Source of the DNA: Octopus sinensis
Lineage: Eukaryota
Direction: 5' to 3'
DNA: 64,000 nucleotides
Assembly: GCF_006345805.1 (NCBI RefSeq)
Contig: NC_042997.1
Coordinates: 71,362,001 to 71,426,000 of the forward strand
Below the pieces are notes generated by a model. That model ran no database searches and was not told the DNA's origin. It worked only from the letters and a program-made list of their open reading frames with translations. Made by a program: the position numbers and the translations under genes. Of this stretch, positions 452 to 59,558 are shown piece after piece (within the stretch, counting starts at the first letter, position 1; each line of letters opens with the position of its first letter).

Positions 452-886
452 ATAAATTTATATATATATATATATATATATATATTATATATATATATAT
501 ATATAATATATATATATATATATATATATATATATATCTATATATATATATATATATATATATATATATATATTATATATATATATATATAAGCGCAGGA
601 GTGGCTGTGGAGTAAGTAGCTTGCTTACGAACCACATGGTTCCGAGTTCACTGCGTGGCACCTTGGGTAAGTGTCTTCTACTATAGCCTCGGGCCGACCA
701 AAGCCTTGTGAGTGGATTTGGTAGGCGGAAACTGGAAGAAGCCCGTCGTATATATGTGTATATATATATATATATATATATATATATATATATAAAATAG
801 TATTAGAGACAAAACCACTATTTTGCAAAACAAACAAGGAAAGACTTAATCAATACATAAAATTTTAATAAATAGTCAAAAAACCG

Positions 887-929
887 CCACTACAATTGTT
901 TCTTGTCTTGATCGACAATCTTCAGGTGG
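887..929 (-). ncRNA. Minimal type I hammerhead ribozyme (left arm)
   Basis: Reverse complement of 1148-1190. Confidence 0.85.
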
Positions 930-1147
930 ACTTCCAATCTAAAATATCAATATTTTAAAATATAAAAATAATAATTTTAAAATAATTAAAGTATGAATGA
1001 AAAAATATAAATATATAATCATATAATATATAATCATATATTTATATTCTTTATATAATCATATATTTATATTTTTTCATTCATACTTTAATTATTTTAA
1101 AATTATTATTTTTATATTTTAAAATATTGATATTTTAGATTGGAAGT

Positions 1148-1190
1148 CCACCTGAAGATTGTCGATCAAGACAAGAAACAATTGTAGTGG
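1148..1190 (+). ncRNA. Minimal type I hammerhead ribozyme (right arm)
   Basis: ccac CTGAAGA ttgtc-gatcaa-gacaa GAAAC aatt GTA gtgg: stem I ccac/gtgg, canonical core, 5 bp stem II, palindromic AATT loop III. Confidence 0.85.
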
Positions 1191-2417
1191 CGGTTTTTTT
1201 GACTATTTATTAAAATTTTATGTATTGATTAAGTCTTTCCTTGTTTGTTTTGCAAAATAGTGGTTTTGTCTCTAATAATATTTTATAATATTTTACTATA
1301 AAATTGGATTTAATCCTAAATCTGATTTTTTCCCTGTAAATTTGGATTTATTCCTAATATTTATTATATATATATATATATATATATATATATATATATA
1401 TATATATATATGTGGGGGGGTGTATGTGCGTGTTTATGTGTCTGTGTGTGTCCCCCCAACATCGCTTGACAACCGATGCTAGTGTGTTTACGTCCCCCGT
1501 AACTTAGCGGTTCGGCAAAAAGAGACCGATAAAATAAGTACTAGACTTACAAAGAATATATATATAAACTATTTAATGATGTTCTCGTTATATATATATC
1601 TGTATGTGTATATGAATAAACTATATATGCATCTATACATACGTGTATGTGTGTGCGCGTGCGTGTGTGCCCGTGTGTGTTTGTGTGTGTATGTGTGTCT
1701 ATATGCGTGTAAATACATTTATACACAGTCGTGTGTAAACATATATATATAATATATATATATATAATATATATATATATATATATATATATATATATAT
1801 ATATATATATATACATATACATATACATATATATATACTTATACACAAAAGTATCTTTTTGATCATAGACTCACGCACACGTGCACACGCGCATAGACAG
1901 AAATATGCATATTGTATGTATATATGTATGCCTGCATGTATGTGTGTATACATGCTACAATGAATGTAAGCATTCCTTCTTTTGGTTGTGCTGACCTTCT
2001 TTCATTCTACTTTGCTTCCTTTTCAGAACTTCTCAGACTCGCATTCCTTTCTCAAATCTAAGTGTTCCTTACGGCCTTTCATACGTATCTAATCGAAACA
2101 TTCACATACTAGCGATCATTGCATATATCTCATTTTTTCTTCACATTCACTAATACGTCTATATATGCACATGTGCACATATACAATACTATAAATGTAC
2201 ATGTGTATGTATATATTTATATAGATACATATTTTCACAAACACACACAATCATCTACATCAATATAAGCAAGATCATATGTACATATATAAAAATGATA
2301 GATGTGCGTGTGAATATATATATATATATATATACATGTATGCATATATATACATGTATGTATATATATATATATATATATATATATATATATATATTAT
2401 ATATATATATATTATAT

Positions 2418-2671
2418 ATGAGGATAATATCGATATTTAAGTGTCGGAATTATCAAGTGGCCAGCATGAAAGAAATACCTTACAAAGGTAAAAAATTTTT
2501 AACAATTAAAAATGAGGGTGTCTAAAAGACACCAACATGCCGAAATAGCAGTCGAAACACTGACTATAGTACCAGGTGCGATGTGAACATTTACCGTGGT
2601 ACTATAGTCAGTGTTTCGACTGCTATTTCGGCATGTTGATGTCTTTTAGACACCCTCATTTTTAATTGTTA
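2418..2671. mobile_element. Hairpin-forming copy of the 199-451 family
   Basis: Internal inverted arms ~2500-2574 and ~2597-2671. Flanked by (TA)n. Confidence 0.65.
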
Positions 2672-2974
2672 TACATATATATATATATAGAAATTCGGGG
2701 TGAGTACTTGATAATTATAAGCACCTGTTGAGTATAGAAATTCGATATATATATACATACATGTATGCATATATGTAGTATATGTGTGTGTGCAGATATT
2801 GTACGCACGAAAATCTGTCGCTCGATGTGTTAGTACGCATCTATATGCATAATATTTGTAAATTCGCAACGTCTACAAGGAGCAGATATGCATGGACCAA
2901 ACTAAGTAATCGATTGATCAAACAAATAGCTGTTTAGTTGTTCATAAATATATTATTTTATATTTTATTCTTGT

Positions 2975-56385: not shown

Positions 56386-56938
56386 CTATTTCAGTATTAC
56401 GTGTTAAAAGTGAAACAAAAACATCTCTCTATTGTAATGTCAGATACTTTCACTTTAATACTGAAACTATTAAAGTCAAACTATTATATAAGAGAGATGA
56501 GCTATTAACAGTGGACATCCATTTTGCTAGAAGAAGATCCGCTATGGTCATATATGCTACACCACTGGTTTTCAATTCATATTAATCGAATTAATATTCA
56601 ATTTCTCGCCCTTATTATTTTTAATTTAAATTTACATGTATATATATATATAATATATATATATATATATATATATATATGTATGTATGTATACATATAG
56701 ATGTGTATATATGGATGTATATATATATACATATATATATATATAGATAGATATTGATATATATATATATATATATATATTCATGTATATATATGGATGT
56801 ATATATATATACATGTATATGTATACATGTATGTGTATAGATGTATATATATATATATAGATGTACATATAATATGTACACATATATACATGCATACATA
56901 TATATACAGCCATACACACATACAGACACATACATAAA

Positions 56939-57240
56939 TAGGTGCAGGTGTGGCTGTGTAGTAACAAACTTCGTTCCAAAACACATGGTCCCGGGTTCAG
57001 TCCCACTGTGTGGTGACTTGGCATGTGTCTTCTGCTAAAGCCTCACACCAACCAAAGCCTTTTCAGTGGATTTTGTAGACAGAAACTGAAAGAAATCAAT
57101 CGTATATATATGTATGTATATATGTAAGTCTATGCGTGTGTCTTTGTGTTTCTCCCTCATCACAGCTTCACAACTGCTGTTCGTTTATTTAGAGCCCCAT
57201 AACTTACCAGGTTTATCAAAATAAAATAAAAAACCACTAG
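56939..57240 (+). mobile_element. SINE family A, diverged
   Basis: aggtgcaggtgtggctgtgtag...ggtcccgggttcagtcccactg...gaaactgaaagaa. Confidence 0.75.
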
Positions 57241-57344
57241 GCAGTATCTCATTTTTGTTTTCCCACACAATTTATTTTTGTGTGTATGTGTGTGTGTGTG
57301 CGTGTGTGTATATACACACACACACATACACACAAAAATATATT

Positions 57345-58755
57345 CATATAAATTCATAAACCCCCTTTCTCAATACATAAAAGAGAATTGGAAAAGTTTC
57401 CTGGACGACTGTTTTATACTCTGGAATGAAAACACAGATAAACTCCTAAAATTCAAAAACCTATTGAACAGTATCAACCCAAATATACAGATCACAATGG
57501 GGTACAACCAAAAGGAGCTTCCATTCTTAGATATACTGATTTAAAAAATTAACCTAAAAATAGAAACAGACATATTCTATAAAAACAACAGACGCCAAAC
57601 AATACCTACTTTTTGATTCATGCCACACAAGACACACTAACACAAACATCCCTTTCAACCTTGCAAGAAGGATATGCACAGTAGTGTCAGAACAAAATAC
57701 CAAGAACTCAAAAACACCCTAATTGATAGACACTACCCAGTTCAACTTATAAAGAATGGGATCAGACGTGCAACAGAAATCGACATAGAAACTTTGAGAA
57801 AAGTTCAACACAACAACACACCTTCCCCGAAAATACTGCCTTACATATCCGCATACAACCCCAGACAACAAAGAAGCCTTCACCATCATCACCCAGAATT
57901 TACCAACACTTCATAAGGACCCCAAATTAAAGGAAATTCTAAACATACATAAAATCATTAAAAGCTACAAACAACCGAAATTACTAAAAAATATTCTCAC
58001 AAATGCAAAATTGTTTTCTGAAATTACGGATATAAAAGTAAAACAATGTGGTAGACCAAACTGTGCAACATGCCCAAACCTTCAAGAAGGATCAGAATTC
58101 CTTTTCAAAGCGGGAAAAAATTCAAGATGAAATCTAATTTTACTTGTGTTTCTGAAAACATAATTTATGTCATAAGATGCTCGGGTTGCCACCAAAACTA
58201 CATAGAGTCCACGGGATTATCACTCAGACGCAGATGCACTCTGCATCGACGACAGATTGCATTCCCAGAATACAGAATGATACCCTTTAGTGAGCATATT
58301 GAGAAATGCGCAAAGCAACTACTACTACAATTTTTCATCTTTCCATTCTATCGATGTGCCATTGGAACACCAACACAGATTAGATTAAACAAGGAAACAT
58401 TCTTCATTGAAAAATATAAGCCTAAACTTAACCATCCTAACATTCTTATACAGAGAAACTCATCTCATTGAAAAAAAGAAAAAATATATAAAGCGATTAT
58501 CTCCCTTATACCTGAAGAAATCCCCGATTACCTCCCCCTGCCTGGAACTCTTCTTTGCACTACATAACGAAGACATGACACGATGTAGGTAAAGAAATTT
58601 GAGAAATTTGAAAAGTTTACACGAAACAGGTTATTTCTCCAAAAACTGTGTTACTATACACAAAATTTTATAAATTTTTCTAACATAACAACTTAAATAT
58701 ATTCTTTAACCTTATAAAACAAGCCTTCTGTAGTTTTTTCCCACTTTTCTATTTT
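57345..58755 (+). mobile_element. Penelope-like element, 5'-truncated (RT C-terminus, GIY-YIG, 3' pLTR)
   Basis: WKSFLDDCFILW, LPFLDILI, CGRPNCATCPNL, FTCVSENIIYVIRCSGCHQNYIE. Paralogous to 16865-19349. Ends in (TA)n. Confidence 0.92.
58601..58639 (+). ncRNA. Hammerhead variant with U3-A8 core
   Basis: gagaaat TTGAAAA gt-ttac-ac GAAAC ag GTT atttctc. 7 bp stem I. Confidence 0.65.
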
Positions 58756-58808
58756 ATATATATATATATATATATATATATATATATATATATATATATA
58801 TATATATA

Positions 58809-59558
58809 GGTGAGAAAGTTGGTGTGTGAAAGCACATATATAGAAACTAGTAAAAAGTGAAAAATCTACAGAAGGCTTGTTTTAAAGGGTTAAAAAATAT
58901 ATATTTGAGTCATTATGTCAGAAGAATGTTATAAATTTTTTTCATACAGTGACATAGTTTTTGAAGAAATTACCGGTTTCGTGTTAACTTTTCAAATTTC
59001 TCAAAACATTGTGTTATGACTTCGTTATGAAGTTTAAAGGAGAGTTCCAGGTAAGGGGAGGTAATAAGTGATTTCTTCCGGTGTAAGGGAGATAATCGCT
59101 TTATATTTCTTGCCTTTTTTTTACTTAATGAGGTGAGTTTCTCTGTATAAGAATGTTAGAGTGGTTAAGTTTGGGCTTATATTTTCATTGAAGAATCAAG
59201 GAAACATTCTTCATTGAAAAATATAAGCCCAAACTTAACCGCTCTAACATTCTTATACAGAGAAACTCACCCCATTAAGTAAAAAAAGGTAAGAAATATA
59301 AAACGATTATCTCCCTTACAACGGAAGAAATCACTTATTACCTCCCCTTACCTGGAACTCTCCTTTAAACTTCATAACGAAGTCATAACACAATGTTTTG
59401 AGAAATTTGAAAAGTTAACACGAAACCGGTAATTTCTTCAAAAACTATGTCACTGAATGAAAAAAATTTATAACATTCTTCTGACATAATGACTCAAATA
59501 TATATTTTTTAACCTTTTAAAAGAAGCCTTCTGTAGATTTTTCACTTTTTACTATTTT
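58809..59558. mobile_element. Inverted pair of Penelope pLTRs, each with a U3-A8 hammerhead (58965-59001 minus, 59401-59437 plus)
   Basis: Arms ~58845-59195 and ~59197-59558 are near-perfect reverse complements and diverged homologues of 58390-58755. HHR: agaaat TTGAAAA gt-taac-ac GAAAC cg GTA atttct. Confidence 0.88.

Follow-up and report, generated by a model that had tools for sequence, protein, structure and literature searches.

Minimal hammerhead motifs of Penelope-like elements in Octopus sinensis, and a high-copy lineage with a possibly new A6U core

Minimal hammerhead ribozymes (min-HHRs; HHR, hammerhead ribozyme) number 2,000-9,000 per genome in the survey of Cervera & De la Peña (2014, PMC4209133), and other reports give more than 6,000 motifs in 16 families for a coral and up to 120,000 for the 28-Gb axolotl genome (PMC7229834; bioRxiv 10.64898/2026.07.22.740005). 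The hammerheads of Penelope-like elements (PLEs) cleave weakly in vitro, and the Naiads spread without them. Here we analyze a 64-kb stretch of the Octopus sinensis genome (contig NC_042997.1, positions 71,362,001 to 71,426,000; hereafter the window), which has 34.5% GC and is rich in microsatellites. We hold with high confidence that its motifs are minimal type I HHRs in the pseudo-long terminal repeats (pLTRs) of many PLE families, plus one retrozyme array, mostly at (TA)n and likely cutting as dimers paired through stem III. The system as a whole is already described, and so is mostly known biology and less new than first thought. What may be new is the first count for the O. sinensis genome and the high-copy A6U core of one lineage, which a first-pass annotation of the window had not noticed.

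A type I descriptor was written with four cores (CUGANGA, UUGANAA, CCGANGA and CUGUNGA), and motifs that passed it, with core, three stems and a palindromic stem III, were called intact. The window contains 30 hammerhead-derived sites from ten dispersed families, A to J, where the first-pass annotation had claimed at least seven families; all of the sites that it listed are present to within a few bases. Twenty motifs are intact; the reversed window has none, and 30 local dinucleotide shuffles average 0.07 (maximum 1). Since three variant cores were picked after the window had been seen, this test is partly fitted, and the 1 Mb genome sample described below is the fairer one. Fourteen of the 20 intact motifs are units of a single 481-bp array (family E), and there are therefore only five independent intact loci. 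Intact motifs outside the array belong to families A (-925 and +1152), B (-3514), G (+54999) and H (-58995 and +59407). The remaining ten sites are decayed, weak-stemmed or truncated; among them, the partial sites that had been placed at 40259 and ~45803 are damaged copies of families I (-40273) and J (+45803), both complete elsewhere in the genome.

The core is canonical in families A, B, E and G, of a compensated U3-A8 type in D and H, and U4C in F, while I and J have complete cores in other copies. Position 6 is A in every family except the C lineage. A short palindromic stem III able to support a dimer is present across the motifs that the descriptor finds in the window and the sample. The tiny palindromic stem III reported by the first-pass annotation is present in 22 of 32 sample matches found without constraint on palindromy, but families E and F carry odd-length near-palindromes; likewise, its unrelated families are indeed ten dispersed ones, except that D and H are related, sharing the U3-A8 core and an ACCGGU stem III. 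Rfam gave no hammerhead match at the gathering score for the window; of 334 E-value matches, the top 150 consist almost entirely of miRNA models placed on microsatellites. Hammerheads of this kind escape both standard descriptors and Rfam, and censuses of such genomes are therefore too low.

Families D and H and the C lineage are PLEs whose 3′ motifs lie behind frames of reverse transcriptase (RT), linker and GIY-YIG endonuclease. In all three, a single frame joins RT to a C-terminal GIY-YIG domain with internal cysteines; the CX4CxxC linker is present in H and the C lineage and degenerate in D. The linker would mark these elements as Neptune/Nematis-type, a clade assignment made from domain features. 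In the 1.6 kb upstream of the motif, a PLE frame on the same strand is present at 21 of the 25 loci of H and 4 of the 25 of D. In the window itself, one broken PLE frame immediately precedes a D motif and another an H motif (Pfam recognized none of the seven broken PLE pieces there). A relative of H (L321) has an open frame of 804 aa with RT, CX4CxxC linker and GIY-YIG, and a U3-A8 motif lies 67 nt beyond it. Its RVT_1 match has E 6.6e-7 and its GIY-YIG match is weak (E 0.049; homologue P0006, E 1.1e-5), and the homologues of the frame bear RT and GIY-YIG domains. Four PLE proteins (P0030, P0046, P0062 and P0070) are filed under bacterial symbiont names in public databases and are probably host contamination. 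The Penelope or retrozyme origin proposed in the first-pass annotation is supported by these frames, by the C lineage with its motif in both pLTRs, and by the tandem retrozyme E. More generally, pLTRs with an HHR, inverted truncated copies and a one-sided tail are all present, and most genomic copies are single, 5′-truncated or head-to-head, with 3′ ends at a fixed distance beyond the motif, mostly at (TA)n.

By analogy with described elements (PMC4209133, PMC8557442), the linker-bearing GIY-YIG endonuclease would nick (TA)n, and the RT would copy the RNA from its 3′ part by target priming, with frequent early stops or inversion. Where copies are tandem or full-length, a transcript would carry two hammerheads that pair via stem III, and their dimeric cleavage would release RNA of unit length, possibly circular. 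The great majority of copies are lone or lie on opposite strands; these lack a cis partner and are probably inert. Only the E array places several motifs on one strand of one insertion in the window. Dimeric cleavage of the window motifs we infer from the same analogy, and co-folding of two copies gives a dimeric hammerhead for A and E.

Several observations weigh against this account. Co-folding two copies of C or H did not give the dimeric hammerhead, the activity measured even for dimers is low (Cervera 2014, PMC4209133), and in saturation mutagenesis every single mutant of the CUGA turn had low activity (PMC9901934). A PLE frame within 1.6 kb upstream was found at none of the loci of A (0/20), window-type C (0/25), E (0/20), F (0/25), G (0/20) and I (0/13), at one each of B (1/20) and J (1/14), and beside only one of 41 motifs of the 1 Mb sample. 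With upstream frames so scarce, PLE origin in families A, B, E, F, G, I and J and in window-type C rests on architecture. In addition, family J is not TA-bound: just 2 of its 14 loci end at (TA)4.

The features of the window are as follows.

791..1357, both strands: family A, inverted pair of 5′-truncated pLTR ends between (TA)n runs
Cores -925 and +1152: family A canonical minimal HHRs, stem III ACAAUUGU
3410..3661, minus strand: family B end, canonical HHR with core at 3514, stem III AAUCGAUU
10670..10856, minus strand: decayed family C copy, A6U core at 10784, plus G12U
16866..19428, minus strand: family D, broken Neptune-type PLE, RT and GIY-YIG pieces at 17601-19428
Core 16990, minus strand: family D 3′ HHR of U3-A8 type, weak stem I, 3′ end adjoining (CA)n
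26198..33391, ~7.8 units on the minus strand, then 7.2 units on the plus strand: family E, non-coding 481-bp retrozyme array
40088..40302, minus strand: family I, 5′-truncated copy with only the 3′ half of a long-stem-II HHR, GAAA at 40273, stem III ACGGCCGU
40303..40510, plus strand: family C copy, A6U core CUGUAGA plus an extra A at 40423, ending at (TA)n
45757..45930, plus strand: family J copy, HHR core at 45803, a 13-nt deletion taking out GAAA
45933..46508: family F, three U4C-core (CCGACGA) copies at -46031, -46385 (G8A) and +46413 (G12A)
54720..55210, plus strand: family G end, canonical core at 54999, 56-nt stem II region, stem III ACACGUGU
57230..58755, plus strand: family H, 5′-truncated and frameshifted Neptune-type PLE with RT C-terminus, CX4CxxC linker and GIY-YIG
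58608, plus strand: family H decayed U3-A8 HHR; the element ends at (TA)27
58809..59558: second family H insertion, flanked by (TA)n runs; both arms of its inverted pair (-58995, +59407) have an intact U3-A8 HHR

Head-to-head pairs occur in families A, F (-46385 with +46413) and H, and one-arm tails in A and E, that of A being ~70 bp long and confined to the right arm. The family C copy at 40423 has stem II GAGC/GCUC and stem III ACGU, and the family I site (40259) has lost the 5′ half of a long-stem hammerhead. All ten families are dispersed in the genome, with first-look candidates, which are not copy numbers, of 918 (A), 1704 (B), 648 (C), 2183 (D), 1525 (E), 1392 (F), 1735 (G), 1313 (H), 788 (I) and 2162 (J).

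The C lineage is the exception at position 6. Its motif, CUGUNGA-A-GAGC-GUAG-GCUC-GAAA-CG-UH, replaces A6 by U; the exact 31-mer has U6 in 12,451 copies and another base, mostly C, in 426, and a whole-genome pattern count puts the A6U form at ~22,000 copies. The substitution has one origin: a tree of all 80 collected copies separates 67 U6-side from 13 A6-side rows (split 97/96; the bootstrap is not fully settled), and the sister lineage keeps A6. Two A6U copies of the 1 Mb sample sit behind a PLE endonuclease, and a search with it returned 150 scored copies of 97-100% identity with frames of up to 1009 aa. All 18 examined loci of this young subfamily (N7=U) carry the A6U motif. Three of them (L345, L347 and L350) have two motif-bearing pLTRs 4.4-4.5 kb apart, and frames in L345-L350 reach 835-1009 aa. 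The subfamily is ~82% identical to that of the window (N7=A), whose copies are mostly ~190-nt ends sharing one 5′ stop. Among 80 metagenome loci with related proteins, 17 contain 22 motifs of the same layout, with cores CUGA (17), CCGA (4), CUGG (1) and CUGU (0); U4C is therefore also the core of four of these 22 motifs, which adjoin related PLEs from other organisms. Family C also appears in four contig-only sequencing runs (three presumed RNA, one of unclear type), with only U6 listed, which is evidence of neither transcription nor cleavage.

Two other readings of the C core were rejected. On inspection, a shifted register (UNGAAGA) breaks stems I and II, and the alignment of the sister A6 lineage follows the first register; matching of N7 with H17 is contradicted by the common U/A, C/A and G/U pairs.

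Published mutagenesis would predict low activity for A6U, and a natural A6C hammerhead, from phage Bcep176, cleaves at less than 0.1/min and prefers Mn2+ (PMC3088659, PMC7151607). It is therefore quite conceivable, if a little less so than the contrary, that the A6U motif no longer cleaves and is retained for its fold, as an RNA signal in RT binding, packaging or dimerization through ACGU, the family spreading without self-cleavage, much as the Naiads spread without canonical HHRs (PMC8557442); the low activity of CUGA-turn mutants and the failure of C copies to co-fold as a dimeric hammerhead agree with this. The pattern of conservation argues for the opposite. Across representatives of four subfamilies, 0-1 of the 35 motif positions other than N7 and H17 vary, compared with 13-33% divergence in the flanks (p 0.06 to 7e-6), a contrast that is overstated to some degree because A6U copies were partly chosen by motif. 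G5, G8, G12 and GAAA are retained, whereas each of the four bases occurs at N7, and A, U or C at H17 depending on the subfamily, the freedom expected of a working core. Because the motif apart from N7 and H17 stays fixed while the flanks drift, we lean slightly toward a slow but needed cleavage in the A6U lineage. We put forward tentatively the fuller proposition, in which A6U became fixed in the "invariant" CUGA turn of a young autonomous PLE lineage that continues to depend on self-cleavage.

We found no published report of an A6U hammerhead, although Repbase entries, subscription papers, Figs S6-S7 of Perreault and other supplements could hold one, and none of hammerheads in octopus or other cephalopods. 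Among the rows examined of Fig. S3 of Cervera 2014 (PMC4209133), none has a U6 core and none is a cephalopod entry.

Association with (TA)n is general though not universal. Of 40 motifs in the 1 Mb sample, 25 have (TA)5 within 250 nt downstream, where the rate at random positions is 12.6% (p=2.5e-13), and 11 have it upstream. By family, (TA)4 lies within 400 nt downstream at 19 of 20 A loci (at 189-203 nt), 21 of 25 C loci and 16 of 20 B loci. The first-pass annotation had placed all motifs in TA/TG microsatellites. The TA part stands for most families; TG (3/40) and CA (2/40) are at background (~6%), and targeting of TG or CA was accordingly rejected, while J lacks the association and no microsatellite lies closer than 500 nt to the family F site at +46413. 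TA repeats abound in this genome, where (TA)5 runs number 13.4 per 10 kb (against 15.9 for the window), and in the window the ends of short interspersed elements (SINEs), which look octopus-like, likewise adjoin TA, so that the association might reflect tails or slippage made by the elements, or merely base composition. We consider this improbable: the enrichment is five-fold over random positions and extends upstream, family J shows none in the same genome, and TA also adjoins inverted arms whose ends fall 70-135 bp before the true 3′ end. Arms with different stop points both adjoining TA fit a target rather than a tail.

The genome-wide number was estimated from 100 evenly placed 10-kb stretches (1 Mb) of the 2.72-Gb genome. 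They contain 31 intact motifs in 27 stretches, with none in the reversed sample and 0, 0 and 0 in shuffles; without the palindrome rule there are 32 matches, compared with 1-2 in shuffles. When the 5′ core is left unconstrained, 13 of 16 matches fall within one letter of a hammerhead core (0 of 4 in the reversed sample). The shuffling check proposed in the first-pass annotation thus separates real from shuffled sequence in both data sets (20 versus a mean of 0.07 in the window, 31 versus 0 in 1 Mb), and its suggestion of a very high ribozyme number is upheld: scaling this 1 Mb gives a density of ~30 intact motifs per Mb and ~84,000 intact motifs (Poisson 57,000-120,000; clustering would widen the range). 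The total is high yet has precedent, and the density looks higher than in published genomes. At least ~39,000 motifs were counted directly by three narrow whole-genome patterns, with no pairing test applied: A6U (22,492 versus 669 reversed), canonical ACGU (9,017 versus 908) and U3-A8 ACCGGU (9,170 versus 41). The 41 distinct sample matches represent 27-31 families (Chao1 73-139). Extrapolation from the window itself was rejected as an overcount, as it holds five intact loci where the sample predicts about two. That the motifs are chance folds of a low-complexity genome is refuted by the window, 1 Mb (31-32 versus 0-2 per Mb in shuffles) and whole-genome controls (patterns 10- to 220-fold above reversed) and by compensated U3-A8 cores in many families, despite short stems (H stem II, 2 bp; D stem I, 2 bp plus a mismatch) and the silence of Rfam at threshold.

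Family E differs from the rest in its tandem organization. Each unit has one HHR, intact in 14 of 15 units, with a U10.1-U11.1 mismatch and a stem I of 6-7 bp. The array has (TA)n at both ends and no PLE frame, and is 99-100% identical to arrays on other chromosomes. Judged by its non-coding tandem units with a type I HHR in each, it fits a non-LTR retrozyme.

Some further observations concern single families. Long copies of family A (L325 4500-7800, L326 5500-7800) are 2-3 kb, internally repetitive and without an open frame, so that family A is perhaps derived from a PLE as a young, non-autonomous element; in L325, three hammerhead families are nested inside 5 kb. Tandem A copies with a 456-bp period (L327 7125-7581, L017) run from the 3′ end through a short leader with a splice-donor-like site to the 3′ part again, and are like a retrozyme arising from a PLE. 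The family D element contains a 152-bp piece with AGG/AGA runs twice (17187-17338 and 18506-18657, 91%). Family F cores read CCG, CTG and CCA (window 45933-46508, L091-L115), consistent with CpG decay of an ancestral U4C core. Canonical motifs at L214, L218, L232, L248, L269, L274 and L307 have stem II regions of 50-100 nt, longer than in the published min-HHR rows, and 6-nt stem III palindromes.

The window also contains unrelated elements. Broken transposase frames at 11162-12096, 33801-35687 and 42383-42771 are, from their motifs, presumably mariner-like. A broken long interspersed element (LINE) with RT (Pfam RVT_1) lies on the minus strand at 47900-51900 amid (TTA)n/(TAT)n runs, its 300-bp 3′ end duplicated, and is a second microsatellite-associated element; we take it to resemble Dong/R4. 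The O. vulgaris repeat paper, in which the word "ribozyme" is absent, describes Dong-R4 as recently active.

If the A6U lineage does rely on cleavage, a deliberately weak or cofactor-dependent hammerhead would be the most numerous ribozyme form of this genome and a natural test of why PLEs carry hammerheads. The genome itself, at ~30 intact motifs per Mb and ~70-140 families, may be among those with the densest known ribozyme complements. The A6U lineage, a successful one, replaced a core base that mutagenesis marks as needed but retained the remainder of its motif across several rounds of amplification; with its A6 sister it allows hammerhead function to be compared directly. Should A6U cleave, it would be a new active core that, like A6C, perhaps depends on a metal or a protein; should it not, the motif would have a non-catalytic role.

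The closest described systems share most of these features. With the min-HHRs of metazoan PLEs (PMC4209133) the motifs have in common type I topology, a short stem I, an extra nucleotide after A9, a palindromic stem III, the U3-A8 variant, many families per genome, mostly single truncated copies and opposite-strand pairs. The Acropora Neptune motif (Fig. S3, PMC4209133) matches those beside relatives of the C-lineage protein. The differences are stem II inserts of 50-110 nt in several families and an estimated ~84,000 motifs against 2,000-9,000. The endonuclease-bearing (EN+) Neptune/Nematis PLEs (Craig et al. 2021, PMC8557442) likewise have RT, a CX2-5CxxC linker, a C-terminal GIY-YIG domain with two internal cysteines, pLTRs, inverted truncated copies, a one-sided tail and a (TA)n bias; the C-lineage element differs by its 0.5-1 kb repetitive 3′ region and its A6U motif. 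Family E is like non-LTR retrozymes (PMC7229834; bioRxiv 10.64898/2026.07.22.740005) in its non-coding tandem units, one type I HHR in each, its spread over many chromosomes and its 99% identity. Its 481-bp unit exceeds the described 170-400 nt circles but is within the 51-972 bp range of Li et al. 2026; unlike described retrozymes, its arrays are inverted and TA-flanked in the manner of PLE insertions. The U4C core of F, the U3-A8 cores of D and H and the U-U mismatch of E are all described variants (Perreault 2011, PMC3088659; PMC7151607). At position 6, the sole known variation in those reports is the rare phage A6C, in contrast to the U6 fixed here in ~22,000 copies of a recently spreading animal element, which may be the new part of this system.

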